IMG/VR virus record: IMGVR_UViG_2061766007_002077
Length of the DNA: 64,000 bases
Direction: 5' to 3' (one strand)
DNA from: an uncultured virus (IMG/VR IMGVR_UViG_2061766007_002077)
Lineage: Duplodnaviria > Heunggongvirae > Uroviricota > Caudoviricetes
Shown here: one piece after another, positions 31,383-60,335 of the stretch
How the letters are laid out: every line of letters begins with the position of its first letter
Position numbering within the stretch: the first letter of the stretch is position 1
Position numbers and translations under genes: made by a program
The notes under the pieces: model-generated
The model's input: only the letters and a program-made list of their open reading frames with translations
The model's database searches: none
What the model was told of the DNA's origin: nothing

Positions 31383-33356
31383 ATGGATATTACAATAAGC
31401 CTTAACAAAGACTTTGAAAGATGCTTGGATGATTTGAGAATCAAGTATGGTGAGGATTTTNNNNNNNNNNNNNNNNNNNNNNNNNNNNNNNNNNNNNNTC
31501 CTTGGTAAGTTCGCCAATAAGAAGACTCTGGCAGATTCCACCATTGACCCCAATGCCAATGCTTTCCATAGGGATTTGAAGAGTTTTACCACAGAAAAGA
31601 GCAAACCAGAGGATAAGGTATTTGCTCTTAACAAGATATTCTATGAGATTAAGAAGAAGTGGGGACTCAAGACAGCAAAGAAGTGGTTGGACTTGGAGTT
31701 CAGCAAGGCTCTGTATCTGAATGACGCATCAACGGCAAGTTATTTCCCATATTGTTGGGCTAATGATCTGACAAGACTTGCCACAGAGGGTCTGTTCTTC
31801 ATCGGTGAGAACTACAACAATGAGCCTCCCAAGCATCTTGAAACATATTTCGATGATGTGATTGAACTTATCTCTTTCCTTTCCAACAGACAGAGTGGTG
31901 CTGTCGGTATCCCCAATGTTCTCATTTGGGCATATTACTTCTGGAAGAAAGATGTGGAAGATGGATATTTCCTCAAGACCCCTGAGATTTATCTCAGGCA
32001 GGTTCTCCAGAAGTTCATTTTCAGACTTAATCAGCCTTTCATCAGAATAGACCAGTCTGCTTTCACAAATGTAAGTATCTTTGACCGAAAGTATCTTGAA
32101 GCTCTCTTTGGTGGAGTGGAGTTCCCTGATGGTTCATTCGCCATTGACCAGATTGAAGATATTCTTGAAGTACAGAAAGTCTTTATGGAAGTTGTTGCTG
32201 AGACAAGAAGCAGACAGATGTTCACGTTCCCTGTAATCACAACAAGTCTTCTTTACAATTACAAGACCTTTACATTTGAAGATGAGGATTTTGCAAGATG
32301 GGCTTGCAGGCACAACATCAAGTGGTCAGATACCAATTTCTTCATCAGTGATAATGTCGGTGTTCTTTCCAACTGCTGCAGATTGCTGAGTGATACAAAG
32401 GAACTTGACCCGTTCATCAACTCAATCGGTGGAACTGCTCTGTCAGTAGGTTCTTGTAGGGTTTCCACAATCAACTTGGTGAGAATCGCCTATGAGGTTC
32501 TTAACCTTGACAAGCCGCTTGATGATAAGTATNNNNNNNNNNNNNNNNNNNNNNGCTTCTCAAGGAGAGAGTTGAACTTGATTGCAAGGCTCTTTACTCA
32601 ATGAGACATATCATCAAGAGAAACATCGAGAAGGGTTTCCTTCCCAACTATCAGGATGGCGCTCTGGAGCTTGAGAAGCAGTTCTGTACAATCGGTGGTA
32701 TGGGTCTGTTTGAGGTTATGGACTTGTTCGGTCTTATCAAGACTGATGAGTTCGGATATAAGTCCTATTCTGATGAGGCCATTGAGTTCTCTTTGAGGAT
32801 TCTTGAAGCAATGAATGAGGTCAAGGACAATTTCACCAAGGAGCAGGAGTGTGATTTCAAGTACAACATCGAGTTCATTCCTGGTGAGAATGTCGCAGGT
32901 GTTCTCTGTACCGCTGATAATCTTCTCTTTGAGCAGAACAGATATTTCATCTATTCTAACCAGTGGATACCTCTTATGGCCAAATGCACAATCCAAGAGA
33001 AGTGTAAGCTGAGTGGTCTGTTTGACAAGAAGTGTGGTGGTGGTTCAATCGCCCATATCAACATTGAGGGTAGATTCCCCAATGAAGATGCCGCCTGGGA
33101 TATGTTGAATTATGTTGCAAAGCAGGGAGTCATTTACTTCGCTTTCACAACGAAGATTTCAGTATGTAAGCACAGACACGCTTTCATAGGTACAAGCACT
33201 TGTCCTGTTTGTGGAGAGCCTATTGCTGATACATTTATGAGAATTGTAGGTTTCTATACTCCACAGAGTGCCTATTCAGCCATAAGGAAAAAGGAGTCCA
33301 ATTTGAGAGAATGGTATCTTGATTTGAGAGGTGATAGTCTTGGATACGCAGTTTGA
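31383..33356 (+). CDS. nrdD: Anaerobic (class III) ribonucleoside-triphosphate reductase
   Basis: QSGAVG, FTFPV, SNCCRL, IPGE, SNQWIPL, C-terminal CxxH..CPVCG and RIVGF glycyl-radical motif; rejoined across N-runs. Confidence 0.9.
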
Positions 33357-33849
33357 CAATGCCATAAGACTTAAAGGTGTGGTGATGGATGACTTCTGCA
33401 ATTACAAGAGGCCATCCATGTTCCTCATTTCCTCTTTCTGTGATTGGAAGTGCTGTATCGAACAGAAACTTCCTCTTACAAGTTGCCAGAATGAGCCGTT
33501 ACACGAATATGAATCCAAGAAATTCACTTATAAGTCATTGTACAATGCCTATAAGGACAACAACATAACTGAAGCAGTTGTCATAGGTGGTCTTGAGCCA
33601 TTCATTCAGGATACAGAGGTGTATGGACTTATGAAGTATTTCAGGAGTAAGGGGTGTAAGGACAAGTTCGTGATTTACTCCGGTTATACCGAAGATGAAC
33701 TGAGGGACAACCCTTTGTTCCTTGAAATGATTAAGTTAGGGAACTTGGTGATTAAGTTCGGCAGATTTGTTCCCAATCAGAAACCCCATTTTGATGAGGT
33801 GTTGGGTGTCAATCTGATATCTGATAACCAGTATGGTAAAGAATATTGA
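33331..33849 (+). CDS. nrdG: Anaerobic RNR activating protein (radical SAM-like)
   Basis: CDWKCC...CQN cluster motif, GGLEP, IYSGYT, KFGRF...SDNQ; follows nrdD. Confidence 0.8.
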   Translation: MIVLDTQFDNAIRLKGVVMDDFCNYKRPSMFLISSFCDWKCCIEQKLPLTSCQNEPLHEYESKKFTYKSLYNAYKDNNITEAVVIGGLEPFIQDTEVYGLMKYFRSKGCKDKFVIYSGYTEDELRDNPLFLEMIKLGNLVIKFGRFVPNQKPHFDEVLGVNLISDNQYGKEY

Positions 33850-36653: not shown

Positions 36654-37247
36654 ATGCCAAAAAAGAAAGCGGAGAAGGTGGAAACTCCTAAAAAAACCAC
36701 AAAGACCACAAAGACCGAGACAAAGAAAGATACCTTCTCTTTCGGTGGAGCAAACGGAAGGATGTCCAAAGAGGAAAGAGAGGAAATCATAAGACAGGCC
36801 ATCACTCCACCAAAACCCAAGATGGAGTATACTTTGGATGAAACCCAGTACACTCCTAAGGAATGGGTGGTTGTTGTCACTCCCAAAGGACAGATTTATC
36901 AGGAGCCCGTTCCAAGATACTTTCCGTTCAGTACATTCGTGGCAATCCTTGCTGGTTGTCCGTCAGACCCTATTGTAAGCAACAATATTGATTTTCAGGC
37001 TGACTTGAACTACACCTCCTTTGATGTTTCCGGAGTTGATTGCAGGATTGTTACCACAACCTTCGATGGACATAGAAAGGAGAATACCTATTCTTGTGTC
37101 TTTGATATAAAGAATACAACACAGAAGATTGGCGGGAACATCGTTTTCTCCGGTTCTGAAAAGGGGTTCACGGAGAAGCAGGCCCAGTCGGTTGTCAAGG
37201 CGATTATTAAAAAATTTGATAAATATGAGGAGAATGTGAAATGGTAG
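36654..37247 (+). CDS. Hypothetical protein with Lys/Thr-rich N-terminus
   Basis: 197-aa ORF with AAGG upstream. Confidence 0.65.
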   Translation: MPKKKAEKVETPKKTTKTTKTETKKDTFSFGGANGRMSKEEREEIIRQAITPPKPKMEYTLDETQYTPKEWVVVVTPKGQIYQEPVPRYFPFSTFVAILAGCPSDPIVSNNIDFQADLNYTSFDVSGVDCRIVTTTFDGHRKENTYSCVFDIKNTTQKIGGNIVFSGSEKGFTEKQAQSVVKAIIKKFDKYEENVKW

Positions 37248-37477
37248 AATTTTTGACAGAGAAAAGCAGTAATCTCCAGCTTGTCCGTTACAATGAGAGC
37301 ACAAGCACCCTTTCGGTTGTATTCCGTAATGGTGGTGAGTATGAGTATGAGAACGTTCCTGAGAAGGTTTATGAGGAACTTACTCATGCTGATTCAGCAG
37401 GAAAATATTTCATCGCAAATGTAAGGAACGCTTTTCCTTGCAAGAAAGTATCTGGTGCTCCTAGAATCCATAAGTGA
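37241..37477 (+). CDS. KTSC domain protein
   Basis: SSNL..V.YN....TL.V.FRNG..YEY.NVP..VY..L..A.S.GKYF...VR..FP is the canonical KTSC pattern. Confidence 0.85.
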   Translation: MVEFLTEKSSNLQLVRYNESTSTLSVVFRNGGEYEYENVPEKVYEELTHADSAGKYFIANVRNAFPCKKVSGAPRIHK

Positions 37478-45654: not shown

Positions 45655-46331
45655 ATGGATAGGATGACGATTATGTGCGTAGATGACCAGATTTTAAGTG
45701 CATATATAGATGGCGAATTAAGCGAGCCTTGGAGAACTCAGATAGATGAACATCTTGAATGGTGCGAAGCCTGTAAAAAGAGATTGGAAGATTTGAAGAA
45801 AGTTCATAATGTGGTGAGTAATGCCGTTCTTGATGATAGTTCAATCGGACTTTCACAGAACAGAGTTATGAGGTATCTCAATGCCAATGTTCTCAATAAG
45901 GAGAAGCACACCTGGTTACAGAAACTTCATAAGATTGTCAGTAAAAAGGTTTTACTGCCGATATGCTCAGCAGCACTTACTTTNNNNNNNNNNNNNNNNN
46001 NNNNNNNNNNNNNNNTGAGAAGGTCAATGAGATTGCCCCTATTGAGAATACTCCCTCTCTTACCATAGAGAACATAACACCAGTCAGACTTACAGACAAT
46101 TACACAACGAATGAGACCCTTGATAAATACTCTCTTGATGATATATTGAGATATCTTGATGAATCAGGATATGATGTTTCAATAAGAGTCAAATCAATCA
46201 ATCCGATTGAAACTGGAGAAGTCATAAAAAGTGATTATAATCCTCTTCCGACTTTAAAGTTTCCTGTTACTGGGTCTTCTGAATTCAAATTGACAAATAA
46301 ATCTTATTTCACATTCAGAGGAGATTTATAA
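45655..46331 (+). CDS. Zinc-binding (zf-HC2/ZAS) membrane-anchored anti-sigma factor
   Basis: LSAYIDGEL...EHLEWCEAC HxxxCxxC motif, then a hydrophobic segment; rejoined across the N-run with 45963..46331. Confidence 0.75.
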
Positions 46332-47198: not shown

Positions 47199-47403
47199 AT
47201 GGCAAACGTTCCAAGATATTCCGTTTATTGTAAGCNNNNNNNNNNNNNNNNNNNNNNNNNNNNNNNNNNNNNNNNNNNNNNNNNNNNNNNNTGTGGATAA
47301 TATGAGAAAATCCTGGCACGGACAGAACGGCATTTATAACTGGATTAAGATTAAGGATACCAGTGTGAATAAATATATCTATGAATATAGGTATAATAAT
47401 TGA
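47199..47403 (+). CDS. Small hypothetical early protein
   Basis: GAGG RBS; MANVPRYSVYCK...YRYNN*. Confidence 0.45.
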
Positions 47404-47417
47404 GAGGAGACAGCATA

Positions 47418-48023
47418 ATGAAGAAGATCCTTGTTGTAGTTGATATGCAGAATGATTTCATCACCGGAAGTCTTGGTTCAGAGTATGCAAAGAATGTGGT
47501 TCTTCCCAATGTGGAGAAGAAGCTGATTCAACATGGTGACTATGTTATCTTCACCATGGACACCCACTTCGATAAGCCCAATGCTTATATTCCGTCTTAT
47601 AATGAATCACTGGAAGGACATAAGCTTCCTGTCAAGCATTGTGTTGTCGGAACAGAGGGATATGAGATTGCCCAGTCCCTCAAGAACTGGTATGCCTCTG
47701 TGGGTTGGAAGCATAAGAGCATTGTCCATAAGTACACCTTCGGAAGCTTTGATGAGCTCCCCAAGATTGTAAAGAAGTATCTTGAGGTTCATTCCAATAG
47801 GGGTGAGAAGGCAGTCTATGACAACATTGAGGATGCTGAGATTGAGATTGTAGGTCTCTGTACAGACATCTGTGTTGTGTCCAATGCTCTCATTCTCAGA
47901 GCAGCTTTTCCTAATGTCAGGATTGTCTGTGATGCAAGTTGTTGTGGAGGAACTTCAAAAGAGGCTCATGACGCAGCACTTGCAGTCATGAGAAGTTGTC
48001 AGATTGATGTTATAGGAGATTGA
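47418..48023 (+). CDS. pncA: Nicotinamidase/isochorismatase-family cysteine hydrolase
   Basis: VVDMQNDF, DTH, HC, K.TFGS and GLCTDICV catalytic motifs. Confidence 0.85.
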   Translation: MKKILVVVDMQNDFITGSLGSEYAKNVVLPNVEKKLIQHGDYVIFTMDTHFDKPNAYIPSYNESLEGHKLPVKHCVVGTEGYEIAQSLKNWYASVGWKHKSIVHKYTFGSFDELPKIVKKYLEVHSNRGEKAVYDNIEDAEIEIVGLCTDICVVSNALILRAAFPNVRIVCDASCCGGTSKEAHDAALAVMRSCQIDVIGD

Positions 48024-48027
48024 TTAT

Positions 48028-48282
48028 ATGTCTGGATTTAAGAGTGAGAAAGAAGTGAAGACCATCCAGGAGCTGTATGATTGGGCCAAGTCAAAAGGCT
48101 TGGAGAACGCACCTTTTGGTCTGATTTATCAGGATGAGGAGAATTGGGGGGATGAGGATACCTTCGCCTGGGAGAGGTGGTGTCTCAACTATTCTGCTGA
48201 GGTGGAGGTCAGGCAAAAGGATTACTTTGACAGACTTCATGACAAGTCAAAAAAGACCATTGAGTATATTTGTTTGAGATAG
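48028..48282 (+). CDS. Hypothetical protein
   Basis: AGGAG RBS; operon gene. Confidence 0.6.
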   Translation: MSGFKSEKEVKTIQELYDWAKSKGLENAPFGLIYQDEENWGDEDTFAWERWCLNYSAEVEVRQKDYFDRLHDKSKKTIEYICLR

Positions 48283-48780: not shown

Positions 48781-49105
48781 ATGAAAAGAAGATTACCAGT
48801 TACATTATTTATGGATTCAAGAAAAGTGATTTTTCTTTGAACGATTATACACAATTCTCTGATTACATACCCTGGAATTATTTCCATTATATAAATAATG
48901 NNNNNNNNNNNNNNNNNNNNNNNNNNNNNNNNNNNNNNNNNNNNNNNNGATTATGAGGACAAGGTGGATGTCAAGTTTGATACCCTTGCCTATCTCCGTA
49001 GAATGTTTCAGGAATCCATCATGAAGGCCTCCGGGGTATATCTTCCAGATGGTATTTTCCGTGTAATCCATATGACCATTGAGGAATCCATATAAGGAGA
49101 AGTAT

Positions 49106-49561
49106 ATGAAGTTCAGAAACGGTTTTGTATCCAATTCAAGTTCAAGCTCATTCATTCTGAGAAACCTGCCAGAATCAGTAAAGACATGGGAAGATGTCTA
49201 TGACTTCTATGGAATGTCAGAAGGAAGTGACGGAAAGTGGAAGCAGGACCCTGAGACCATTGAGTTCTGCAAGATGATTCTGAGGGATTGGGAACACAGG
49301 AATGACGAGGACTATGACGATATGTATGGTGGGTTCATTCCAGAGTATTTCAAGGACAACCCCAATGGGCTTGAGGAATTCCTGCATTACTATGATTTCT
49401 GCTTCAAGAACGGATATTATAGGGATGAACTTGACAAGGTGATTGCTCATCCCGAGAATTACTGGGAGACCAGTGTGGATGATACCTATTTGGGTGGTCC
49501 AGGTTGTGCCTATATGGGTTCATATATCACAAAGAACGGAATTGAGATAAATTGTCATTGA
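49106..49561 (+). CDS. GFVSNSSS-leader family protein 1
   Basis: AAGGAG RBS; starts MKFRNGFVSNSSSSSF. Confidence 0.75.
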   Translation: MKFRNGFVSNSSSSSFILRNLPESVKTWEDVYDFYGMSEGSDGKWKQDPETIEFCKMILRDWEHRNDEDYDDMYGGFIPEYFKDNPNGLEEFLHYYDFCFKNGYYRDELDKVIAHPENYWETSVDDTYLGGPGCAYMGSYITKNGIEINCH

Positions 49562-49571
49562 GGAGGCAGTT

Positions 49572-49952
49572 ATGACACATAAGATTATAGACAATCAGTT
49601 TTTAAGGGATTTTGCTGAGAAGTTCAGTAAAGATGAGGCAGACAGAGAGAACATACAGAAATGTGATGAGTTCTATGTAGATTACTATGATGGTGTAGGT
49701 GCTCTGTATTTCAAAGGCTTCTATGGAGATAATTGGGAATATCATTTCAGCATCGGAAACAATGGCAATATCTTTGAATGTGAGGATTACAGATTCCTTT
49801 GGGACAATCTTATTTCAAAGAATGAGGATTTCATTGAGTGGCTTAAGGACCATAGACTGACAGAGGAAGACCTTATGTCAATAAGCGGTGAGATTTATGA
49901 TAATGGAGCAGATTTCCATACAGACTTCTCGTTCTATGGTAAGGAAGATTGA
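49572..49952 (+). CDS. Acidic hypothetical protein
   Basis: GAGGAGG RBS. Confidence 0.65.
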   Translation: MTHKIIDNQFLRDFAEKFSKDEADRENIQKCDEFYVDYYDGVGALYFKGFYGDNWEYHFSIGNNGNIFECEDYRFLWDNLISKNEDFIEWLKDHRLTEEDLMSISGEIYDNGADFHTDFSFYGKED

Positions 49953-50151
49953 ATGATTTCAAAAGAGACTTTCAATCAGATTATAGAGAACGGACCTAAT
50001 GATGTCTTTATTGACAATGCTGGTATCATTTGGGAGNNNNNNNNNNNNNNNNNNNNNNNNNNNNNNNAAATTCTGGGTCATAGAAGGAAAGAAATACCCT
50101 TATACAGAAGATTATCAGAGTCTTGTCAAAGAGATAGAGGAGAAAAGATAA
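49953..50151 (+). CDS. Small hypothetical protein
   Basis: After the N-run it reads ...KEIEEKR* with TAA overlapping the next ATG. Confidence 0.5.
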
Positions 50152-50408
50152 TGAAGATTAGAAAAGGATTTGTATCTAATTCTTCATCATCTTCTTTTGT
50201 AATTACAGAAGAGAAACTGGAAGATTTAAAGAGTCTTAAAGATGCCATTGAGTGCTTCTTTGAGGACTATGATAATGACAGCAGTGAGTATTTCTGGTTC
50301 ACGGAACATAGTGATGGAACAAAGGAAATTGAGCTTACTACTGAAACAGACAATAGAGGGGAAAGATTACTTTATGAAGTCTTTTCTACTCTAAGTTGGA
50401 GAGATTAA
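50151..50408 (+). CDS. GFVSNSSS-leader family protein 2
   Basis: GAGGAG RBS; starts MKIRKGFVSNSSSSSF. Confidence 0.75.
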   Translation: MKIRKGFVSNSSSSSFVITEEKLEDLKSLKDAIECFFEDYDNDSSEYFWFTEHSDGTKEIELTTETDNRGERLLYEVFSTLSWRD

Positions 50409-51437
50409 ATGAAAATCAGGAATGGGTTTGTAAGCAATTCATCATCTTCAAGTTTTATTTTATTCAAGGAATATCTTACTCCTGAGCAGATTAAACAGAT
50501 AAGGAACTGGAAGGATTTCTGTCTGTCAGATGAATACAAGGAGATGCTTGATAAATATGAGGGGAATCTTTATCCTCATGAGACTGAGAACTTTGTCTAT
50601 GATAAAGACTCAGATGAGATGGTCTCAGTCCATGTGGAGCCTTTTGATGAAGGGGACTATGCCTATTATCCAACGGGGTGGGAAGTCAAGGAAGGCCCCA
50701 ATGTCTTTGACTTCTATACGGACATGGACAACTTCGATATGGAGCAGTTCCTCAAGGTAATTGGAGTTGATATTGATAAGTGTGGTATTTGGGAAAGTTA
50801 TTCTGGAAGTTATAGGAGTACTTTGGGTCTGAACGATGCAAGAACTGATTTACAGAATTATGCAAATGACAAGTACTTCATGGATGATTATGATAACAAT
50901 TACTATTATACCAGTAAATTGTATAAAGAGAAGATATATCCTGCTTTAAAAGAGTGGTATGATAAACAGCCCGATAATGAATTCAAGGGGTGGCCACCTC
51001 ATCCACCAGTAGAACCTAAGAAGTGGATTTGTGAGGATGCTGGCAAGGCACTAAGGGAAGTCAAGCACAATATCGAGGAACTGGCAAAAAAGAATGGTTG
51101 TTATTTCCTTGAAACAATGGCTAATGGGGAATACTATAATGAGAAGTGTAAGCTGTATGCTGAGGTTCTTGATACCATTAGAGAGGTAGAAGATAACTGG
51201 CAGGCAGTTGATGAGTTTGAAGAACCACAGGTCTATACTGCACCTTTTGACCTTGAAAGATGGAACAAGAAGAAAGAGGACGATAGCCAGAGAGTAGTAG
51301 CTGCTTTAGAGGGTGAAGGTAATTACAATGNNNNNNNNNNNNNNNNNNNNNNNNNNNNNNNNNNNNNNNNNNNNNNNNNNNNNNNNNNNNNNNNNNNNNN
51401 NNNNNNNNNNNNNNNGATTATCAATTTTGATGAATGA
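50409..51437 (+). CDS. GFVSNSSS-leader family protein 3
   Basis: Starts MKIRNGFVSNSSSSSF; end passes through an N-run. Confidence 0.75.
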   Translation: MKIRNGFVSNSSSSSFILFKEYLTPEQIKQIRNWKDFCLSDEYKEMLDKYEGNLYPHETENFVYDKDSDEMVSVHVEPFDEGDYAYYPTGWEVKEGPNVFDFYTDMDNFDMEQFLKVIGVDIDKCGIWESYSGSYRSTLGLNDARTDLQNYANDKYFMDDYDNNYYYTSKLYKEKIYPALKEWYDKQPDNEFKGWPPHPPVEPKKWICEDAGKALREVKHNIEELAKKNGCYFLETMANGEYYNEKCKLYAEVLDTIREVEDNWQAVDEFEEPQVYTAPFDLERWNKKKEDDSQRVVAALEGEGNYNXXXXXXXXXXXXXXXXXXXXXXXXXXXXXIINFDE

Positions 51438-51479
51438 TAAAGGCTTAGATTTGACTAATTTCCTGTTAGGTGGCGTATT

Positions 51480-52236
51480 ATGTTTGATGAATACAATTTG
51501 GAAGAATCCATAAATGACAAGAACTTGCTCAAAGCAGTCTTTATGGCAGGNNNNNNNNNNNNNNNNNNNNNNNNNNNNNNNNNNNNNNNNNNNNNTCGGA
51601 AAGGACAAGATATCCTTTTCGGGTGCAATGTTGGTCAATACTGATATTTTCTTTGAATTGGGATTGAGGAAGGCTGATTTGCCTATGGTGGTTAATCCAG
51701 ATAACAGAAGCATATACGCCAGACAGATGGAAATCAGAGATAAAGCCACTAATCTGACAAAGACCAAGCAGGGATTTTGGATTAACTCAATGCTTCCTCT
51801 TGTCATAGATGGAACAGGTAAGGACTTTGAGAAAATCAGAAATCAGTCAGATGTCCTTAGGTCTTTCGGTTACGATACCTATATGGTGTTTGTCAACACT
51901 TCTCTTGATACTGCACAGAAAAGGAACTCTGAAAGGGAAAGAAGTTTAAGTCCGAATATGATTGAGCAGATGTGGAATATGGTTCAGTTCAATATCGGTA
52001 AGTTCCAGGAGTATTTTACTCCATCTAACTTCTGGATTATAGACAACAATGAGACTTATGAGCCTGGTGCTGAGGATACTTTGGAGTTTGAGAGAAATCT
52101 CTATAAGATTGGAAGAACTATTCTGACTTCTCCTTTGAAGAACAGAATAGGTCAGGCCANNNNNNNNNNNNNNNNNNNNNNNNNNNNNNNNNNNNNNNNN
52201 NNNNNNNCTGGAGAAGAGGGAGAAGAAAAAGCTTGA
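51480..52236 (+). CDS. Zeta-toxin/AAA_33-like P-loop kinase
   Basis: MFDEYNLEESINDKNLLKAVFMAG[masked P-loop]; VNTD, IDGTG and GYDTYMVFVNTSLDTAQKRN.ER.R motifs. Confidence 0.65.
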
Positions 52237-52279
52237 CAAGCAGAAAAGAATAAGATAAATAAAAATAAGATAAATATAT

Positions 52280-52318
52280 AATCACCCTATTGACAATGGG
52301 GTGATTTTATTTTATAAT
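52280..52318 (+). promoter_or_regulatory. Hairpin overlapping a consensus sigma70 promoter
   Basis: AATCACCCTATTG/AATGGGGTGATT inverted repeat containing TTGACA (52290); TATAAT 17 nt downstream. Confidence 0.7.
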
Positions 52319-52352
52319 ATAGATGTATCAAAAAAGTAGGGAAGGTAGTTAT

Positions 52353-52655
52353 ATGACAGTTAAAGAGCTAATCGAGAGACTTAACGATTTCAATTCTAAT
52401 GATGAAGTAAAGATATTCAATGGAATGTCTGTTGAATACAGCGATGTCGGAGTAGGTGATGCTCCTAATGTTGTGTTCATCGGTTGTGGTATCAAGGGTC
52501 TTGATGAAATCATTAATGAACTCAATGATAATATTTATGACCTTGATAGTGCTCTTGACGATTTGGAAGATGATGGGGCTGACACTATCGAAGCTGAAAG
52601 CGCTCTTGATTCCATCAGACTCTCCGTCAGCGATTTAGAAGATTTGGAATATTAA
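52353..52655 (+). CDS. Highly acidic protein, paralog-like to 57261..57623
   Basis: MTVKELIERL start; D/E-rich coiled-coil C-terminus. Confidence 0.6.
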   Translation: MTVKELIERLNDFNSNDEVKIFNGMSVEYSDVGVGDAPNVVFIGCGIKGLDEIINELNDNIYDLDSALDDLEDDGADTIEAESALDSIRLSVSDLEDLEY

Positions 52656-52659
52656 AGAT

Positions 52660-52986
52660 ATGTTGATTGGAGCTAAAGCAGTAAAAGGAACATTCTTTGA
52701 GGTAAAGCCTTATAATGCTCTTCCTTGTGAAGCAAGGGTCTTTACCATAAATGGTAAAGATGCTGACTTGTATGACTTTGGTGATTATGAACATGGTGAC
52801 TATGACGAGTGTGACGATGAAGACATCTGTCGCTGGGGTTGTTTTGAAAAGTACTTTGTGACACTTCCTTATTCTGAGAATGAAAAGGCTGCTAAGAAGT
52901 ACAATCTGACAGAAGCAGACTATAATGAAGTTACATCTGAACTTGAAGATGTGTTCGCCATAGGCACTTGCGGGTGGTGTGTATGA
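52660..52986 (+). CDS. Cys-containing hypothetical protein, paralog of 35740..36036
   Basis: LPCE..FTING..AD..DFG...AKKY.L...Y..V...LED....G.C.WC. Confidence 0.65.
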   Translation: MLIGAKAVKGTFFEVKPYNALPCEARVFTINGKDADLYDFGDYEHGDYDECDDEDICRWGCFEKYFVTLPYSENEKAAKKYNLTEADYNEVTSELEDVFAIGTCGWCV

Positions 52987-53561
52987 CAAGAAGATTACCG
53001 AAGTTATTAAGTAAGATATTCACAAAGTTGTTTGCCAATGAGAAACAGCCTTATCTTACCGAGATAGGTATTGATAGCTGGCCTGGCAACCATTGGGGTG
53101 GGGTTGATTTCTTTGGTTCTATCAGTTCAGCCATAAGAGCTAAGAGAAAGAAAAGAAAGTATGGTGTTGACCCCAGAAACGCTTGGGAACTTGATGATGC
53201 TTTCTACAGATGGTTGNNNNNNNNNNNNNNNNNNNNNNNNNNNNNNCTCAAAGACACAAATGCTGATTTGTCTTGTAGGAAGTTTAAGCATAACGGACAG
53301 ACTTACACAGAGGAAGAATATATAAGATACCTGCAGAAACTCTGTGTGGAAATGATGACTTTTGATGAGTTTGCTGGTTGTCCTGACCTTGAATATCATA
53401 CGGAGAAGGTTGAAGGTGGAAGCACACTTGTCTGTGATAGTTCAAAGGAAGACCAGGAATTACTGCTTAGAAAGCATGAGGAGAACTTCAAGAAGAACGA
53501 AGATTTAAGAAAAGAATTATGTGATGTGTTCTGTGAATTACTGCCTTATCTCTGGTGGTAG
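52983..53561 (+). CDS. Hypothetical protein
   Basis: Operon gene ending LPYLWW; terminator follows. Confidence 0.65.
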   Translation: MTRRLPKLLSKIFTKLFANEKQPYLTEIGIDSWPGNHWGGVDFFGSISSAIRAKRKKRKYGVDPRNAWELDDAFYRWLXXXXXXXXXXLKDTNADLSCRKFKHNGQTYTEEEYIRYLQKLCVEMMTFDEFAGCPDLEYHTEKVEGGSTLVCDSSKEDQELLLRKHEENFKKNEDLRKELCDVFCELLPYLWW

Positions 53562-53580
53562 ATTATATGCATATTGTTTT

Positions 53581-53612
53581 AAAGCCCTCTCGCAAGAGAG
53601 GGTTTTTCTTTT
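53581..53612 (+). terminator. Rho-independent terminator
   Basis: AAGCCCTCTC-GCAA-GAGAGGGTTT plus a T-run. Confidence 0.75.
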
Positions 53613-53639
53613 ATATTATAGGTATAAAGGTTTAAGGAT

Positions 53640-53912
53640 ATGAAAACAAAACAAGTGTATGAACTAGCAAAGCTATTTGAGGGGAAGGTTGATACTCCTA
53701 TTACATATGCGTATATTCTTTCATATTTACAAGATAAAGCAAGAAAAGGAAAGAAGACCATTGATGGAAGGGCTCTTTATAAGTATAATCCGTCCTTAAA
53801 GACAACTTATAAGGTGATATTGAGGAACTTACAGACAATGGGATTCATTAAGGTTCTTAGATTGCCTGAATTGGAATATAGAGTTTATTTTGAATTGAAT
53901 GAAGGAATATGA
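53640..53912 (+). CDS. Small basic protein, possible winged-helix DNA binder
   Basis: AAGGA RBS; KTTYKVILRNLQTMGFIKV wHTH-like segment. Confidence 0.45.
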   Translation: MKTKQVYELAKLFEGKVDTPITYAYILSYLQDKARKGKKTIDGRALYKYNPSLKTTYKVILRNLQTMGFIKVLRLPELEYRVYFELNEGI

Positions 53913-54147
53913 TAGTATGCTTGATAGTATGGATATAACATTTTGCAGAGGTATGGCTGAGCAGGAGATAAACGGGAACAAGGTTTCCGTGATATGTCCG
54001 GTAAGGGATAACTGTCATAGGTTCTGGACAGAGGAACACTCAAAGGAAGCATTAAGAACAGGTGACATATACCATTCATTCTTTGTTATGGATAATGTAG
54101 ATTATATTAAAGAAGATGGTTGTGAGAATTTTTGGAGAGAAAGATAA
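53909..54147 (+). CDS. Small Cys-containing hypothetical protein
   Basis: DITFC...CPVRDNCHRF...CENFW motif; start uncertain. Confidence 0.5.
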
Positions 54148-54791
54148 TGAGCTTTTTTAAGAGGAAGAATAAGGAAGTGAAAATGGCTTTGGGACAGGAT
54201 AATCTCAAACCTATTGGTGGGATTATCTATTATATAAACAATGCTTCAGATGGAAAGTATAAGCTCTATGACAAGAACAAGATAGAGATACAGGACCCAT
54301 CAAAGGCAGCTTATTATGAGATAATTAAGCAGGGTTCAATACCCAAGTATTATGTGGTTGATATAAAGACAGGTCTCACTGGACCTTACAGATGGTGTCA
54401 TATGGACCAGGACCTTGGAATCAAGGGAACAAGCATTGGTGATGGCAAACACAATACCCAGGTTGCTCTGAATACACCTGATTCAAGTGTATATAAAGAC
54501 CATAATCTTTGGGATGAAGTTCTCAGACATAATGCAGATGCTGTCGGGGGACAGGCTGATTGGTTCATCGGTTCAAAAGATGAGATAGAAGCGCTGATTA
54601 AGTCGGGTCTGGTGGATAAGTGGTTTGAGAAGAAAAAGAAGAAGAGAGACTACATCCTGATTTGGTCTTCTTCTGAGAGAAATCACCCCAACACTGTATG
54701 GTATTGGGATGAAAAGCTGACAGATAGGAACCACTGGTATAGACAGATAAAGGATTGGGGTTGTAGTGCCTGCTTCATAAGGTCATTCTGA
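54147..54791 (+). CDS. DUF1566/Lcl-like C-type-lectin-fold protein
   Basis: GGIIYY, G..NT, GGQADWFIGSKDE...L, WSSSE and C-terminal ACFIRSF motifs. Confidence 0.55.
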   Translation: MSFFKRKNKEVKMALGQDNLKPIGGIIYYINNASDGKYKLYDKNKIEIQDPSKAAYYEIIKQGSIPKYYVVDIKTGLTGPYRWCHMDQDLGIKGTSIGDGKHNTQVALNTPDSSVYKDHNLWDEVLRHNADAVGGQADWFIGSKDEIEALIKSGLVDKWFEKKKKKRDYILIWSSSERNHPNTVWYWDEKLTDRNHWYRQIKDWGCSACFIRSF

Positions 54792-54815
54792 TATGAAGAT
54801 AAGAAATGAGGATAA

Positions 54816-55163
54816 ATGATGAGCACGAAGGAACAGATACTTAGCAACATGAAAGTTCTCGCCAACAGATTAGCCCCACTTATTAGCTTCAGATATCTCG
54901 TACTTGAATGGGATGTCAGAGATAAGACCAAAGTAATTAAGATTTATAAGGATGAACCCAGATTTATTAAATTCCATGCTTTCTTTTACGGATTTGGTAG
55001 CAAGTGGGAAGGAAGGGAATACCCCGCTCAAGATAATAGCCTTATAATTCAAGCTCCAGTCTGTACTATTCAAGTGAGCGACCTTGTAGGTATCTCTTTC
55101 GATGGGTTGTCAGGAGAGGATGATTATTCTGAGTTTATTGTAATTAATGGAAATGAAGAATAA
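54816..55163 (+). CDS. Hypothetical protein
   Basis: GAGGA RBS. Confidence 0.6.
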   Translation: MMSTKEQILSNMKVLANRLAPLISFRYLVLEWDVRDKTKVIKIYKDEPRFIKFHAFFYGFGSKWEGREYPAQDNSLIIQAPVCTIQVSDLVGISFDGLSGEDDYSEFIVINGNEE

Positions 55164-55165
55164 AA

Positions 55166-55813
55166 ATGAAGATAAGAAACGGTTTTGTAAGCAATTCAAG
55201 TTCAGCATCATTTGTCTTGGCTTTCCCCAAGGACAATCCTGTTGAATTGAAGGACATTGAGGATTACTTCGGTGGGTTCTGTATGGTCAATGGGTATAAT
55301 GAGGAATTAGGCCCTGAGTATAAAGATATGTTTGTCTTTGAGTTGTGGAGGTCACAGTACTTCAATGGTGATGGAGACAGAAGGACAGAAAACAGATACC
55401 TCTTCCGTGATGATGATGGAAAGGTTCTTCCTGTTGAGTACACCCATTATCAATGTGATGCTGAATGGAAATACACAAAAGAAAATTTCTGTGGGTTCAA
55501 TGGTGCTGACACTACTGAAGATGATGATATAGAGATACCACCGAGGGCTTGTAAAAAGTGTCCGCATCTTCATAGTGAAAAAAGAATCCAGCGTGATGAT
55601 GATTATTACTATGTCCTTGAAAACAACAAATGGAACGATGATTTGAAGGCTTGGCTTGAGGAACATAAGGGAGACAGAATCATTGAGTTGGAGATTGATG
55701 ATAATGAGCCTCCCAGAGAGTTGCCCTATGAGGTTGCCAGTGAGATTACAAGTTCAGCATATCATATATTCCAGAAGTATAAGGACAAGGCTTATTGCTT
55801 AGGAGGCAAGTGA
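55166..55813 (+). CDS. GFVSNSSS-leader family protein 4
   Basis: Starts MKIRNGFVSNSSSASF; internal C..C / CxxC. Confidence 0.75.
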   Translation: MKIRNGFVSNSSSASFVLAFPKDNPVELKDIEDYFGGFCMVNGYNEELGPEYKDMFVFELWRSQYFNGDGDRRTENRYLFRDDDGKVLPVEYTHYQCDAEWKYTKENFCGFNGADTTEDDDIEIPPRACKKCPHLHSEKRIQRDDDYYYVLENNKWNDDLKAWLEEHKGDRIIELEIDDNEPPRELPYEVASEITSSAYHIFQKYKDKAYCLGGK

Positions 55814-56007
55814 TGGATAAAGAGAAATTGAAGAAGTTCATTTCAGAGGAGCTTCTCAAGAGAACCAATGGGAATGGCAGAGTTCCTCTCATTGACCATT
55901 TCGGAATAAGCGGGTATATGTGTGAGCCTGAGAGGATTGAGAGACTCATCTTTCCTATCATAGACAAGGCTTATGACAGTCAGAGGATAGAGACAGATGA
56001 GTGTTGA
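55813..56007 (+). CDS. Small hypothetical protein
   Basis: GGAGG RBS; overlaps its neighbours. Confidence 0.5.
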   Translation: MDKEKLKKFISEELLKRTNGNGRVPLIDHFGISGYMCEPERIERLIFPIIDKAYDSQRIETDEC

Positions 56008-56614
56008 GAGAGTGGATTACAGACATATCTGCAGGGATGAGAAGAACAATCCCAAGGTGGTGGGAGCTGTGATGGCAGAGGCCGTCAAGGTGTTCATGCA
56101 GAAAACAAGAGGGATAAACGGAGCAGAGTTTCGTTATAATGAAGGGCACCCTGTCACTCTAAATGACCTTGCTGAGATAGGGACATATTTCGAGAAGNNN
56201 NNNNNNNNNNNNNNNNNNNNNNNNNNNNNNNNNNNNNNNNNNNNNNNNNNNNNNNNNNNNNNNNNNNNNNNNNNNNNNNNNNNNNNNNNNNNNNNNNNNN
56301 NNNNNNNNNNNNNNNNNNNNNNNNNNNNNNNNAGAAGCAGAAGAATCATGTACAGGCTTTACGGATTAGCTGAAGTAGTCTATTGGGACTCTTGGAACAG
56401 AAACTGGAAGAAAGACAGGTCAGAGATAGAGAAGTTGAGCATAGTTGTCAATGAAGAGCCTGAGGATAATTATGGTGATGAATGGACTATGTTTGAGAAA
56501 GACTATAAAATCATAAGGGAAGTTATGGAAGTCTATGATGATAATACGGATTGGGCCACCATTAAAATTTCAGAAGATAATCCCTTTGTCAGCATTGTGG
56601 AGGTTGAGGAATGA
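55997..56614 (+). CDS. Hypothetical protein(s); the N-run may hide a gene boundary
   Basis: ORF with a 135-nt mask. Confidence 0.45.
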   Translation: MSVERVDYRHICRDEKNNPKVVGAVMAEAVKVFMQKTRGINGAEFRYNEGHPVTLNDLAEIGTYFEKXXXXXXXXXXXXXXXXXXXXXXXXXXXXXXXXXXXXXXXXXXXXXRSRRIMYRLYGLAEVVYWDSWNRNWKKDRSEIEKLSIVVNEEPEDNYGDEWTMFEKDYKIIREVMEVYDDNTDWATIKISEDNPFVSIVEVEE

Positions 56615-56946
56615 AGATAAGAAACGGATTTGTGAGCAATAGCTCAAGTTCAAGTTATATCATCTATGGATTCCCCTCAGAGATGCTTGAGGATGAGTCC
56701 TGTGAGAAATGGGATGAGGCCAAGAGTGACCGTAACAGGGATTATNNNNNNNNNNNNNNNNNNGAGGATGAGATAATAGGGGAGTCTCTTTCCTATTGGA
56801 GCGATGGAGCAGAGAATATCAGCCTTGATGTCAGTCCTGAGAATCTCTGGAGATGCAGGGAGAAGGTAAAGAAGATTATCAAGGATTCACTGGGATTTGA
56901 TGTACCTGATGAATGGTTCAGACTTATGGGCGCCACATGGTATTGA
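56611..56946 (+). CDS. GFVSNSSS-leader family protein 5
   Basis: Starts MKIRNGFVSNSSSSSY. Confidence 0.75.
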   Translation: MKIRNGFVSNSSSSSYIIYGFPSEMLEDESCEKWDEAKSDRNRDYXXXXXXEDEIIGESLSYWSDGAENISLDVSPENLWRCREKVKKIIKDSLGFDVPDEWFRLMGATWY

Positions 56947-56952
56947 GGGCTT

Positions 56953-57258
56953 ATGGATACGAATGAGTATGTGAAGACCTTCCACATAGACGGAAAAGAC
57001 ATAAGGCTTGGTCTCAATGATTATGGTCAGTGCTATTTCGTGGAATGGGAAGATGATGAGGGTAAGATACAGGATGTAGGTCTTGGAGCATATAATTTCG
57101 ATTATATGGAAGAGGTCTATTATATGTTTGACCCTGTTTATAAGGAACTTATGAGAAAATCTTTCAGAGGCGAATTGACCGATGAAGAGGAATCCAAGTT
57201 TGAAGAATATCAGAAGATGTTCGCAAAGGAATATGGAACATACTATGGGGAGGAGTGA
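56953..57258 (+). CDS. Acidic hypothetical protein
   Basis: GAGGG RBS. Confidence 0.6.
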   Translation: MDTNEYVKTFHIDGKDIRLGLNDYGQCYFVEWEDDEGKIQDVGLGAYNFDYMEEVYYMFDPVYKELMRKSFRGELTDEEESKFEEYQKMFAKEYGTYYGEE

Positions 57259-57260
57259 TT

Positions 57261-57623
57261 ATGGATATCAAAGAGCTTATTGAGGAACTGAACAGCTGGA
57301 ACGCACCTTATGCTGACATCACAGTATGCGGTCTGGGTATCGAGGGAATAGAGAATATCGGTGCAAATACTTTCTCTATTGTTCCTGAGACAGATTATAC
57401 TATTGATGATAAGATAGAGGAACTTGAGAGAGATATTAATGACAAGGACTCAGAGATAAATGACCTTGAGGATAAGGTCAGTGATTATGAGGATTTTGTT
57501 GAGGATTTGAAGGCTGATATGCAAGCGGCAATCAGTATCCTTGAGGATTTGGAAGATGCAGACCCAAGGATTCTCAAGATAATTGATAAGTTTGAGGATG
57601 ATATAGACAAAGAGATTTACTGA
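57261..57623 (+). CDS. Highly acidic coiled-coil protein
   Basis: GGAGGAG RBS; MDIKELIEEL start; D/E-rich heptads. Confidence 0.6.
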   Translation: MDIKELIEELNSWNAPYADITVCGLGIEGIENIGANTFSIVPETDYTIDDKIEELERDINDKDSEINDLEDKVSDYEDFVEDLKADMQAAISILEDLEDADPRILKIIDKFEDDIDKEIY

Positions 57624-57668
57624 TGAAAAAATTTGTGAACAGATTCATGGTGACAGAGAGGAAGATAA

Positions 57669-58172
57669 ATGACATATAAGACATTTGAACAGACAACTTG
57701 TGAACCTGTAACTTATCATTTTAAAGAAGAGGGTAAGTCAAGGCTTACTCCTTTCCAGGCCATGTATCTTGTGGAACTGTGGTGTTCCTTTCCAGAGAAG
57801 GAAGGATATCAGATAAATTCTGTCTACAGAATGAAGGTCTGTGATGTACTCAAGGAAGTTGAGTATAGGAAAAGTGACTGGTCCTTTGATGATTATGAGA
57901 AATGGATAACTGACAGATTCAGTAAGTTCACCAGAAAAGACTGGAGAAAATACTACAGAGACGTCAGGAAANNNNNNNNNNNNNNNNNNNNNNNNNNNNN
58001 NNNNNNNGGGGGTTATGACCTGATTGTTAATACAGATACCATAAACGGTGTTGAGAGAAATCCAAACAATAGAGAAGGTTCTGTTTGGATTTGGACAACA
58101 TGGTATGTCAATGGGCAGATGGTTGTGAATGAGAGCTTTGAGAGCTTCATGTCAAGGTTGGATTGTAAATGA
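57669..58172 (+). CDS. Hypothetical protein
   Basis: GAGGA RBS. Confidence 0.6.
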   Translation: MTYKTFEQTTCEPVTYHFKEEGKSRLTPFQAMYLVELWCSFPEKEGYQINSVYRMKVCDVLKEVEYRKSDWSFDDYEKWITDRFSKFTRKDWRKYYRDVRKXXXXXXXXXXXXGGYDLIVNTDTINGVERNPNNREGSVWIWTTWYVNGQMVVNESFESFMSRLDCK

Positions 58173-58675
58173 AGATAAGAAATGGTTTTGTATCAAACTC
58201 AAGTTCAAGTTCTTTTGCCCTTTTTTATAAGAAAGAGGATATACTTCTCAATGGGCATGATTTGGAGACTTGGTTAAAGAACAACAAGTTTGAGGACCAT
58301 GACCTCTGGACTATAATGAGAGGTGGCCCTGATGGAGATTTCTTCAGATGTGAGGTCAACAAGTCCATATTGAAGGTTCTCCTCAAGCACAAGACAGATT
58401 GGACGAAGTGGAGAGATTATGTGGATGATAGGAATCTCATGATTCTGATTGACCCAGTTTGGAAGGATGAAGAGGACTATGAATATGGTCTGTGTATCCG
58501 TGACCCCGAGTACAGAAAGGACTATGACAAATATGAGGGTGACGGATATGAGTGGTCAGAAGTGAGTGTAGACTACCATGGTCCAAAGACAGAAAGAGAC
58601 TGGAAGTATGAGTTCGGTGACATGACTTTTGAACAGTATTGGGGACATCCACAACCACAATGGGGGCATAAATGA
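58169..58675 (+). CDS. GFVSNSSS-leader family protein 6
   Basis: Starts MKIRNGFVSNSSSSSF. Confidence 0.75.
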   Translation: MKIRNGFVSNSSSSSFALFYKKEDILLNGHDLETWLKNNKFEDHDLWTIMRGGPDGDFFRCEVNKSILKVLLKHKTDWTKWRDYVDDRNLMILIDPVWKDEEDYEYGLCIRDPEYRKDYDKYEGDGYEWSEVSVDYHGPKTERDWKYEFGDMTFEQYWGHPQPQWGHK

Positions 58676-58951
58676 CATTTAAGGAATTTGTAGAAAGTAA
58701 GNNNNNNNNNNNNNNNNNNNNNNNNNNNNNNNNNNNNNNNNNNNNNNNNNNNNNNNNNNNNNNNNNNNNNNNNNNNNNCTAATATTTCAGAAGGAAAGAT
58801 ACCTCTTGTAGTAGAACAGGATGTTCCTAATAAGATAAATGAAAATCCAGATACAGTGGGTTGTGTAGAACTTTTGGTCTTTAATGCCCCTGAGGAACAA
58901 ATATCAGATTTGGATGAATTAGGATATGTATATATTTCAAGGAATTAAAAA

Positions 58952-59754
58952 ATGAAAATCAGAAATGGTTTTGTATCTAATTCAAGTTCAGCATCCTTTG
59001 TCCTTATAGGTAATACTGAGCCTACTAACAGCGCCCAATATGGAAGGACATTCACAAGGATTTCTACAGGAGCCAGCGGAAACTCCACTGCCCATCCTGA
59101 TTATGAGATACTTCATGTCCCTCATTATGAGGATGAGACCAACTTTTGCAGAAGTGATATCATGTGGGTGTCATCCATTGAGGGAAAGATATGGTATATC
59201 ATGGCTCTTTATGCAAGATGGTATGAGGGAGACCCTGATTACTTCAAGAAGGTCCTTGATGCTGAGAGTAAGATATTTAAGTTAGGCATTTCTCACTGGT
59301 ATTCCATCGGTATTCAGATTCCTCCACTTTTTGCCCGTTATGAGAGGGACTGGGATTCAGAGAATCATAAATTCCTTGATACCAAGCACATTGAGACCTA
59401 TGTGAATGTATATACTGAGTGTGATTACTCCAAGCAGATTGTGGATATGATTGAAGATGAGGATACCTCACTTCTTGACAGATTCATATTCAGCAATCAT
59501 AGTTTCTGTGTTCTTGGTGGTGACGAGTATGANNNNNNNNNNNNNNNNNNNNNNNNNNNNNNNNAAGGAAGGATAATCCGGATTTCTCCTATGTGATGTT
59601 CGCCGACTATGAGGACCATGACAAGGATGATGCCTGGGTTGATAGCCAAGGTGTTGAGCACAAGTGGGGATATGACAGTCATTGGGAAAAGGATTGCTTC
59701 ACCCATGAGAATTGGAATGATGATGAGGATTGGATAGAGGCGAAATATATATAA
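58952..59754 (+). CDS. GFVSNSSS-leader family protein 7
   Basis: AAGGA RBS; starts MKIRNGFVSNSSSASF; rejoined across the N-run to ...WIEAKYI*. Confidence 0.75.
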
Positions 59755-59810
59755 CCAAAAGATGTACGGGATTTAGGAAGATTGGTGAAAATATCTTAAA
59801 TAAATGTGAA

Positions 59811-59840
59811 AGGAGGCCATAAAGCCTCCTATTTTCTTTT
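59811..59840 (+). terminator. Rho-independent terminator
   Basis: AGGAGGC-CATAAA-GCCTCCT plus ATTTTCTTTT. Confidence 0.7.
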
Positions 59841-59966
59841 ATAATAGAATTATGGACAGAGAAGAGCTTGTTGATGATGAGATTGTTGTACCAGTTAAGG
59901 ATGATGATAAGTCCGATAAGGGTTTTGATTATCAGCCTTATGTGAATATGGTGTTGGAGGCTGATT

Positions 59967-60335
59967 ATGACTTATGATTTCAGCCAAATGAAAATGTGTG
60001 AGGTCCTCCCTGGATTCTGGTATGATGCTGATCTCAAAACAGACCCCACCATGTATTCACAGATTAAGCTGACAAAGGACAATTTCTTTGATGTGAATGG
60101 ATGGCAGATTATGGCCCGTTGTGATAAAGGAAACAGTGTCACCATTTTTCACGCTCATACCCTTGAGGAATGTAGGGATTATGTTAAGGAGACTTTTATA
60201 TGGGGAAGACCCTATAATTCTCTGAGAAAGGAACTTACAGAGGATTATGAGTTCCTTAAGAAAGATTGCCATTCAAGAAGTTGGGAGATTGCCCAGCATA
60301 TAGATTATATTTTGAATCATATAATCGGTGATTAA
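59967..60335 (+). CDS. Hypothetical protein
   Basis: GGAGG RBS. Confidence 0.6.
   Translation: MTYDFSQMKMCEVLPGFWYDADLKTDPTMYSQIKLTKDNFFDVNGWQIMARCDKGNSVTIFHAHTLEECRDYVKETFIWGRPYNSLRKELTEDYEFLKKDCHSRSWEIAQHIDYILNHIIGD

Follow-up and report, generated by a model that had tools for sequence, protein, structure and literature searches.

A near-invariant N-terminal tag on unrelated phage proteins is genomically coupled to one family of radical SAM enzymes

Why would a phage begin a series of proteins that otherwise appear unrelated with the same 16 residues? The question is raised by a stretch of DNA from an uncultured member of the Caudoviricetes (IMG/VR record IMGVR_UViG_2061766007_002077; the whole stretch of 64,000 nucleotides, 64 kb, is referred to below as the window), in which the peptide MK(I/F)R(N/K)GFVSNSSS(S/A)S(F/Y), here called the tag, opens exactly seven open reading frames (ORFs) in a six-frame scan, all on the + strand (Table 1). 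These are the seven starts that had been named in an initial annotation of the locus, which took a constant tag on variable cargo as a sign of a dedicated system. This proposal is borne out by the analysis described here, in which the tag was found to be coupled genomically to a single family of radical S-adenosylmethionine (SAM) enzymes. The 16-residue N-terminus probably serves one dedicated phage enzyme of this family as a tag for recognition and modification.

When the window was scanned with a 24-column tag profile, in which 63 of the 70 rows came from other phages, the seven tags scored 42.7–49.7 bits, the next best site in the window scored 5.1, and the best site in five shuffled windows scored 7.9. 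Residues M1, K2, R4, G6, F7, V8, S9, N10, S11, S12, S13, and S15 are invariant in the seven. Among their same-residue codon pairs 145 of 308 differ in codon, and the mean nucleotide identity over the 48 nt of the tag is 72%; the codons reported earlier for Ser9 (TCC/TCT/AGC/AGC/AGC/TCA/TCT) and Gly6 (GGT/GGA/GGG/GGT/GGA/GGT/GGT) were found to be correct. With the codons scrambled in this way, it is therefore the peptide that is conserved and not a DNA repeat, in agreement with the selection on the peptide that had been proposed. The description of the remaining parts of the proteins as acidic, aromatic-rich, and mutually unrelated also holds. The proteins are 85–342 aa long, with isoelectric points (pI) of 4.4–5.1, net charges of −9 to −30, and an F+W+Y content of 13–18%. 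Pairwise BLASTP of the seven bodies after removal of the tag gave nothing better than E 0.006, and in profile-profile comparisons of 12 tag-removed body families none of the 66 pairs reached 50% probability (maximum 23.8), a result that did not differ from controls; as far as sequence profiles can see, the bodies behind the tag are unrelated. A minor correction concerns the end of the tagged span, which had been placed at 59754, while the last tagged gene stops at 59596. Pfam and PADLOC searches with the seven proteins, and an NCBIfam search with one of them, returned no family, and the ESM Atlas returned only viral hypothetical clusters for tagged proteins (scores of 0.88), the product of the gene at 58169 included. 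All seven match phrog_7397 of PHROGs v4 (unknown function; E 2.3e-7 to 7e-4) through their N-termini only, with coverage from profile positions 1–22 up to 1–73 of 170, so the tag had already been grouped by automated clustering. This family bears no function or link to an enzyme, and only the first 22–74 residues of the proteins align with it (residues 1–74 for the protein encoded at 49106, E 2.7e-5).

The tag is not confined to the window. At least 662 IMG/VR stretches were matched by a scan with both tag halves, and among the 56 loci returned the tagged genes form arrays on one strand, with as many as 15 in 20 kb. The anatomy of the tag was analyzed in 393 distinct tagged ORFs by counting those residues that were left free in the search pattern: K2 is present in 389, R4 in 392, G6 in 386, S15 in 377, and F or Y at position 16 in all 393. 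In 359 of these ORFs the distance from Met to F7 is exactly six residues, and Leu or Val occupies the place of this Met in 29 more, where they probably correspond to alternative start codons. The median length of the ORFs in this set is 133 aa (range 47–390). With an independent anchor for the tag search, namely a basic N-terminus and serine/threonine richness, 378 true tags were obtained; five of them do not follow the core pattern (residue 9 is Ala or Gly in two, residue 13 is Val in three), and N10-S11-S12 is without variation. A 30-column tag profile gave 26,926 matches at E ≤0.001 among 1.84 billion cluster representatives (50% identity), and in ~140 of the best 150 matches, as read by eye from the table, the best match is at residue 1. 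Two matched stretches were found in 10 of the best 150 (P0040–P0049), and the six of these ten that were inspected have two full tags per protein, one at residue 1 and one internal, which has kept its Met. Such double-tag proteins look like natural fusions of adjacent tagged genes. In the tags of loci L005, L010, L012, L017, L022, L024, L026, L038, and L051, a CxxC motif follows straight after the tag (e.g. ...SSTSFICDVCGE...), which suggests that this subset is a candidate zinc-ribbon body family.

The putative partner of the tag is a 356-aa radical SAM protein encoded at 156008–157075 in a closely related phage genome, G001 (284.7 kb, 96% complete; ~80–90% DNA identity to the window). This genome also has 11 tags, which lie on the strand of the enzyme between 131.9 and 200.9 kb. 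The association of the two was analyzed in both directions. In the forward direction, the G001 enzyme was used as the query of a protein search of 34 tag-bearing IMG/VR records, drawn from 35 of the 56 loci; the other 21 loci (L030–L036, L039, L041–L050, and L053–L055) were left out, and those of them with listed tags carry the tags of L028/L029. An enzyme homolog was present in 23 of the 34 records and in all eight that are ≥90% complete (G004 among them). In the reverse direction, 80 loci were fetched by the enzyme alone, with a scan based on an 8-sequence alignment (an 18-sequence alignment did not contain a sufficiently conserved stretch), and in 70 of them one or more tagged ORFs lie within 10 kb. 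The 289 tags found in this way are all on the strand of the enzyme, and many of the tagged ORFs start directly after its stop codon. For 68 of the 80 enzyme loci the contigs lie outside the forward set, by comparison of contig names by hand, and tags are present in 59 of these.

The association was also observed in a neutral control, comprising 50 of 80 loci that were found through an NrdD like that of the window, on contigs of ≥80 kb and with G001 excluded. Eight of these records contain the tag together with a strong enzyme match, one contains the tag only, none the enzyme only, and 41 neither (Fisher p = 1.7e-8, which overstates independence, since by reading the positives come from about three lineages). 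The contig of the sole tag-only record is 80% complete, and its tags lie within the final 700 bases. Apart from the enzyme, none of the untagged gene families was present at more than 10 of 99 enzyme loci, so the module looks two-part, and neither a conserved protease nor a conserved exporter was found near the enzyme. The radical SAM enzyme is the only companion that the tag has constantly. The identity of residue 9 is uniform within each locus (Ser in 134 loci, Thr in 27, mixed in none), and Thr9 tags occur only with a divergent enzyme clade of 28–33% identity (G009, G027, G028, and G030). This uniformity agrees with one reader per genome, and shared descent could also account for it. The tag and the enzyme family therefore co-occur, co-localize in both search directions, and vary together.

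The same module was found outside virus records. On contigs of metagenome-assembled genomes (MAGs), tags are present at 15 of 20 enzyme loci, with labels that include Bacilli, Treponema, Patescibacteria, Chlorobiaceae, and Asgard, Bathy-, Woese-, and other archaea. The archaeal MAG loci with the enzyme and the tag are L180, L182, L183, L184–L187, L191, and L198; for these contigs, a provirus, an archaeal virus, or a binning error are all possible. At L183, on a 793-kb contig of a Promethearchaeota MAG, a single tag lies on the strand opposite to the enzyme. Among cultured phages, 172 records contain the enzyme (Klebsiella 110, Enterobacter 20, Cronobacter 14, Citrobacter 11, Escherichia 9, and others). 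In Enterobacter phage phiEap-3, for example, the enzyme is gp161, and the tagged proteins gp113 and gp118 are encoded 19–23 kb away on the same strand. Cultured phages thus carry both the tag and the enzyme, so the pair is directly testable at the bench.

Members of the enzyme family are ~330–400 aa long, and the clusters (90% identity) with a match to the enzyme at E ≤1e-20 number at least 1,982. The CxxxCxxC motif of the SAM cluster is CKHGCPFC in the G001 enzyme; in 88 enzyme sequences C67 and C74 are invariant and C71 is ≥90% conserved, and in some members the first two cysteines of the motif are separated by an insert that can reach ~14 residues. Four further cysteines (C254, C274, C293, and C351) are invariant in the same 88 sequences and would therefore suit one auxiliary cluster. 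Among radical SAM enzymes, a twitch subdomain holds one auxiliary cluster, and a SPASM domain holds two and has a seven-Cys motif. The enzyme passes the gathering cut-off of the radical SAM family PF04055 narrowly (31.8 versus 29.5 bits), and the homolog in G004 was missed by a genome-wide PF04055 scan and caught by the protein search. SPASM PF13186 was below its cut-off (16.6 versus 21.5 bits) in the single homolog in which it was seen, and it is a precomputed annotation of many homologs. No curated NCBIfam family was found for the enzyme (the best, TIGR04317, scored 30 bits versus a cut-off of 380), and no PDB entry matched its sequence. The AlphaFold2 model of the enzyme has a predicted local distance difference test (pLDDT) score of 96.8 and starts with a five-strand beta domain of ~45 residues. 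In structural comparisons its best PDB matches were SuiB (5v1t_A; Z 24.0, root-mean-square deviation (rmsd) 3.6 over 311 aligned residues, covering model residues 1–355), SkfB (6efn; Z 22.1, rmsd 3.2, 280 aligned), CteB (Z 19.9), and the anaerobic sulfatase-maturating enzyme anSME (Z 19.7, rmsd 3.4, 277 aligned); pyruvate formate-lyase (PFL) activase reached only Z 13.5 (rmsd 3.1, 196 aligned). The predicted fold is thus that of peptide-modifying maturases.

Two variants of the enzyme gene were observed. Homologs P0206, P0249, and P0301 (484–496 aa) contain Hint/intein Pfam domains, so inteins have invaded the enzyme gene. ORFs in L166 (9617–11122), L167 (9740–11140), and L171 (9617–11104) encode an enzyme with an extra N-terminal domain of ~100–140 residues (FTLVDDIE...). 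Fusion with a tag was considered as an origin of this domain and rejected, as the domain is not a tag. These three loci have no tagged gene within 10 kb, and the subgroup may serve another substrate.

How the tag relates to the fold of the proteins that carry it was examined in the AlphaFold2 model of one of the seven, the protein encoded at 55166, and all structural statements on the tag rest on this model. The protein has 37 metagenome homologs, 34 of them at 100% query coverage, and every one is tag-initiated. In the model (pLDDT 79.8) residues 1–10 are unplaced (mean pLDDT 40), and residues 13–20 form the first core strand. A Foldseek search of the PDB with this model gave no match at E ≤0.001, and the best score in a VIA-align search of 48,161 chains was Z 2.7. 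These results divide two suggestions made for the locus at the outset. The possibility that all seven proteins are homologs of one domain, with the motif as its first strand, agrees with the model for residues 13–20, and the homology that it implies was not found in the profile comparisons. For a RiPP-like leader (RiPP, a peptide made on the ribosome and modified after translation) recognized by a modifying enzyme such as a radical SAM protein, the genomic evidence favors the part that concerns the enzyme. The removable leader finds no such agreement: since the end of the tag is the first core strand of the model and there is neither a conserved protease nor a conserved exporter in the vicinity, removal of the tag is improbable.

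In the mechanism that we propose, the enzyme would have a radical SAM barrel, preceded by a small beta domain at the N-terminus and followed by a C-terminal four-cysteine part holding one auxiliary iron-sulfur cluster, and in the phage of the window it would most probably be encoded elsewhere in the genome, as it is in G001. Residues 1–9 of the tag (MKxRxGFV-S/T) would dock on the enzyme as an extended strand, so that N10-S11-S12 is presented to the SAM-derived radical. The tag would not be cleaved, and the modification would be retained on the mature protein because residues 13–20 are the first strand of its fold. One enzyme could in this way mark or activate a large and changing set of small acidic accessory proteins. 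As to the chemistry, a cross-link within the tag, as made by SuiB, is our tentative first choice; oxidation of a serine to an aldehyde, as by anSME, is a somewhat less likely candidate, on a par with some other reaction altogether, and epimerization is doubtful. A cyclophane between F7 and S9 was also considered, and it is weakened by the two tags with Ala or Gly at position 9. A further proposal, which we consider possible and less likely than not to hold in full, is that the enzyme installs an undescribed group on or around Asn10-Ser11-Ser12 in thousands of small acidic phage proteins that are otherwise unrelated, and that this group is a shared reactive or stabilizing 'warhead' needed by the accessory proteins. 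It would be a protein-level counterpart of RiPP maturation in phages of bacteria and archaea, and the tagged proteins would then probably be early host-takeover or counter-defense factors.

Several observations weigh against the tag being a substrate of this enzyme. The enzyme was not seen in 11 of the 34 tag-bearing records, including G002 (79% complete) and G022 (88% complete), and a full tagged gene is missing within 10 kb at 10 of the 80 enzyme loci; at these ten no variant serine-rich N-termini were seen, and one of them, L011, has the tag on a 24-aa ORF. Many of the loci are near-duplicates, so the lineages are not independent. The tags of phiEap-3 are distant from the enzyme, as given above, and the window itself contains no member of the enzyme family (best tblastn E 7.2), so its presence in this phage is deduced from relatives with a rearranged gene order. 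Co-occurrence alone, moreover, shows neither binding nor catalysis. Part of this evidence would suit a tag that acts independently of the enzyme as a packaging, export, localization, or degradation signal, with an indirect link between two kinds of accessory genes of the same phage groups. The records without an enzyme fit such a signal, as do the extreme N-terminal location of the tag and tags that can lie 19–45 kb from the enzyme, and a precedent exists in T4, where diverse cargo with N-terminal targeting peptides is known. Nevertheless, we regard an independent signal as improbable, because the neutral set contains no enzyme-only and a single tag-only record, all 289 tags share the strand of the enzyme, residue 9 tracks the enzyme clade, and on MAG contigs of archaea and diverse bacteria, with their different host machineries, the tag is no less invariant. 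No positive evidence was found here for a packaging or export signal, an autoproteolytic N-S junction, or a common docking strand. A partnership without modification is another way to read the co-occurrence data, which apply to it equally: the tag would be a docking handle, and the tagged proteins would be interchangeable adaptors that steer the enzyme to host proteins, nucleic acids, or metabolites. The many diverse bodies per enzyme, the retention of the tag in the modeled fold, and the combination of a near-invariant tag with varying bodies, which would suit a constant interface, all speak for it. However, the closest structural relatives of the enzyme bind the peptide as a substrate, and an unvarying N-S-S would be expected at a reaction site more than at an interface, so adaptors are an unlikely explanation, albeit the best of the alternatives.

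Two further alternatives place the meaning of the motif in the tagged proteins themselves. They could be members of one very divergent family, in which the motif is a conserved first strand and loop, e.g. a ligand-binding serine loop. This would explain the position of residues 13–20 in the model and the alignment of up to 74 residues of one protein to phrog_7397, and by eye there is an impression of a late 'hydrophobic-x-hydrophobic-D' strand and a C-terminal 'hydrophobic-G-G' in several of the seven. Set against it are the profile-profile and BLASTP results for the bodies and the placement of residues 1–10 outside the modeled fold. It also leaves the link to the enzyme unexplained, and we consider it very unlikely. 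Alternatively, the enzyme could act as an activase and generate a stable glycyl radical at G6 within R-x-G-F, which would make the tagged proteins radical enzymes. The glycyl radical motif is R-V-x-G-[YF] and is located in a C-terminal loop. The tag resembles it, G6 is conserved as counted above with F7 next to it, and the phage of the window appears to live anaerobically, since it encodes NrdD and an NrdG-like protein. In the tag, however, R is at −2 and not at −3, and the site lies in what is modeled as a flexible N-terminus rather than in a buried C-terminal loop. The enzyme is also structurally much closer to SuiB than to PFL activase (Z 24.0 versus 13.5), and its Cys-rich C-terminal part is a putative auxiliary-cluster region of a kind that activases are not known to have. 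A glycyl radical is thus scarcely credible. Substrate recognition and modification by the radical SAM enzyme remains the reading that we favor.

The genes of the window are listed in Table 1. The window has a G+C content of ~36%, is a stretch of a large phage, and contains 4,163 masked bases in 81 runs, some of which lie inside three of the seven tagged genes (50409, 56611, and 58952). Upstream of tagged gene 2 its frame continues without a stop, through the masked run 50037–50067, to an ATG at 49953, and the start of the gene was set at 50151 because of the position of the tag and a Shine-Dalgarno-like GAGGAG. An ORF in another frame (49999–50151) terminates exactly at this tag ATG, and coupling or fusion of tagged gene 2 with the gene before it is possible. 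The junction of the two NrdD ORFs is close to the masked run 32533–32554, so a true split, a frameshift, or masking are all possible.

Table 1. Positions of the tagged genes and of other recognizable genes in the window
Feature	Position	Strand	Details
Tagged gene 1, MKFRNGFVSNSSSSSF...	49106..49561	+	151 aa; tag 49106-49153; 42.7 bits; AAGGAG upstream; pI 4.47
Tagged gene 2, MKIRKGFVSNSSSSSF...	50151..50408	+	85 aa; tag 50151-50198; 49.7 bits; GAGGAG upstream; phrog_7397 at residues 1-22
Tagged gene 3, MKIRNGFVSNSSSSSF...	50409..51437	+	342 aa (29 masked residues); tag 50409-50456; 47.4 bits
Tagged gene 4, MKIRNGFVSNSSSASF...	55166..55813	+	215 aa; tag 55166-55213; 47.9 bits
Tagged gene 5, MKIRNGFVSNSSSSSY...	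56611..56946	+	111 aa (6 masked); tag 56611-56658; 47.6 bits; start overlaps upstream ORF stop (56614)
Tagged gene 6, MKIRNGFVSNSSSSSF...	58169..58675	+	168 aa; tag 58169-58216; 47.9 bits; start overlaps upstream ORF stop (58172)
Tagged gene 7, MKIRNGFVSNSSSASF...	58952..59596	+	214 aa (12 masked); tag 58952-58999; 49.4 bits; AAGGA upstream
Anaerobic ribonucleotide reductase NrdD, first ORF	31447-32604		Pfam NRDD positions 14-293
Anaerobic ribonucleotide reductase NrdD, second ORF	32601-33356		Pfam NRDD positions 319-561
NrdG-like small radical SAM activase	33331-33849		after NrdD ORFs
KTSC-domain protein	37241-37477		
zf-HC2 protein	45655-46068		anti-sigma-type zinc finger
phrog_12810 / polynucleotide-kinase-like protein	51514-52236		
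DnaG-type primase			
5'-3' exonuclease			
Large tail-like ORFs			
Two DNA methyltransferases			

The nucleotide identity of the window to G001 is 68–92% in scattered, rearranged blocks (blastn). An earlier placement of the enzyme just past the end of the window, derived from the G001 coordinates, was dropped, as the same comparison shows the two to be rearranged mosaics. Tagged gene 1 has an 81%-identical ortholog in G001 (locus L001). Tagged gene 3 is 75% identical in nucleotide sequence to G001 192181–193096, which is likewise tag-initiated, and for tagged gene 5 the identity is 87% to G001 199878–200927. An isochorismatase-family gene of the window (47400–48023) corresponds to G001 166.6–167.5 kb, and the genes adjoining it correspond to sites 20–30 kb away. 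The accessory region of the window is a mosaic relative to G001, with a shuffled order (e.g. blocks 47412–48281 and 55805–56197), and megablast with window positions 49000–60000 gave no match to a cultured phage.

No description of the tag or of the tag-enzyme pair was found in the literature searched, subscription journals and supplements not included, and a term search of one preprint (10.1101/2022.04.06.486684) returned no mention of the pair. The tag marks one of the largest uncharacterized protein sets met in this analysis (26,926 clusters), and the pair is found in jumbo phages, in T4-like phages of Klebsiella, Enterobacter, Cronobacter, Citrobacter, and Escherichia, and on archaea-binned contigs. 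If the proposed role is correct, it would constitute a new virus-made post-translational modification of whole proteins, provide a one-line rule to recognize substrates in any phage genome, and help to find out what many 'hypothetical' early genes do.

Several known systems can be compared with the one described here. In T4-type capsid targeting, the cargo is found inside virions and its N-terminal peptide is cut by the prohead protease; no virion proteome relevant to the tagged proteins was found in the literature searched. Three-residue cyclophane (triceptide) maturases act on an aromatic-x-X pattern, which F7-V8-S9 of the tag fits. Of 378 tags, two have Ala or Gly as residue 9, which is weak evidence against a cross-link that must involve Ser9, and the partner enzyme has no NCBIfam match to FxsB. 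The radical SAM/SPASM enzymes FxsB, XyeB, and GrrB form cyclophanes on precursor peptides (PMC10114670). The anaerobic sulfatase-maturating enzymes anSMEcpe and AtsB modify Ser or Cys in full-length proteins and are thus a precedent for a serine target in a protein. However, their targets belong to one enzyme family, whereas the tagged proteins are many and unrelated. The tag MKxRxGFVSNSSSxSF does not contain the motif that is targeted in sulfatases, (C/S)-x-(P/A)-x-R, and anSME has two auxiliary clusters.

The closest parallel is with SuiB/SuiA (streptide Lys-Trp cyclase) and SkfB/SkfA (sactipeptide synthase). Like the predicted partner enzyme, SuiB and SkfB have an N-terminal extra part, a barrel, and a C-terminal Cys-rich auxiliary-cluster part, and in these systems the substrate, like the putative substrates described here, carries an N-terminal recognition sequence that is conserved, and its gene lies next to that of the enzyme. 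The sequence identity is only 15%, and the partner enzyme has only four invariant auxiliary cysteines. The recognition element of SuiB is a winged helix, whereas the N-terminal part of the partner enzyme is modeled as an all-beta domain of ~45 residues. The substrates also differ: they would be folded proteins of 47–390 aa, many per genome, in which the tag appears to be retained and next to which no protease or exporter is conserved. One trait of classical RiPPs, an N-terminal recognition sequence on substrates encoded near a maturase, is therefore present in the relatives (the maturase being absent from the window itself), while the short precursor with a cleaved leader and a dedicated protease or exporter was not found (median ORF length 133 aa), and without such a conserved protease or exporter nearby the system is not a classical RiPP. 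In summary, a radical SAM maturase with leader-tagged substrates is known already, and what is new here is whole folded proteins as putative substrates, their number per genome, the apparent retention of the tag, and the phage-centered range.

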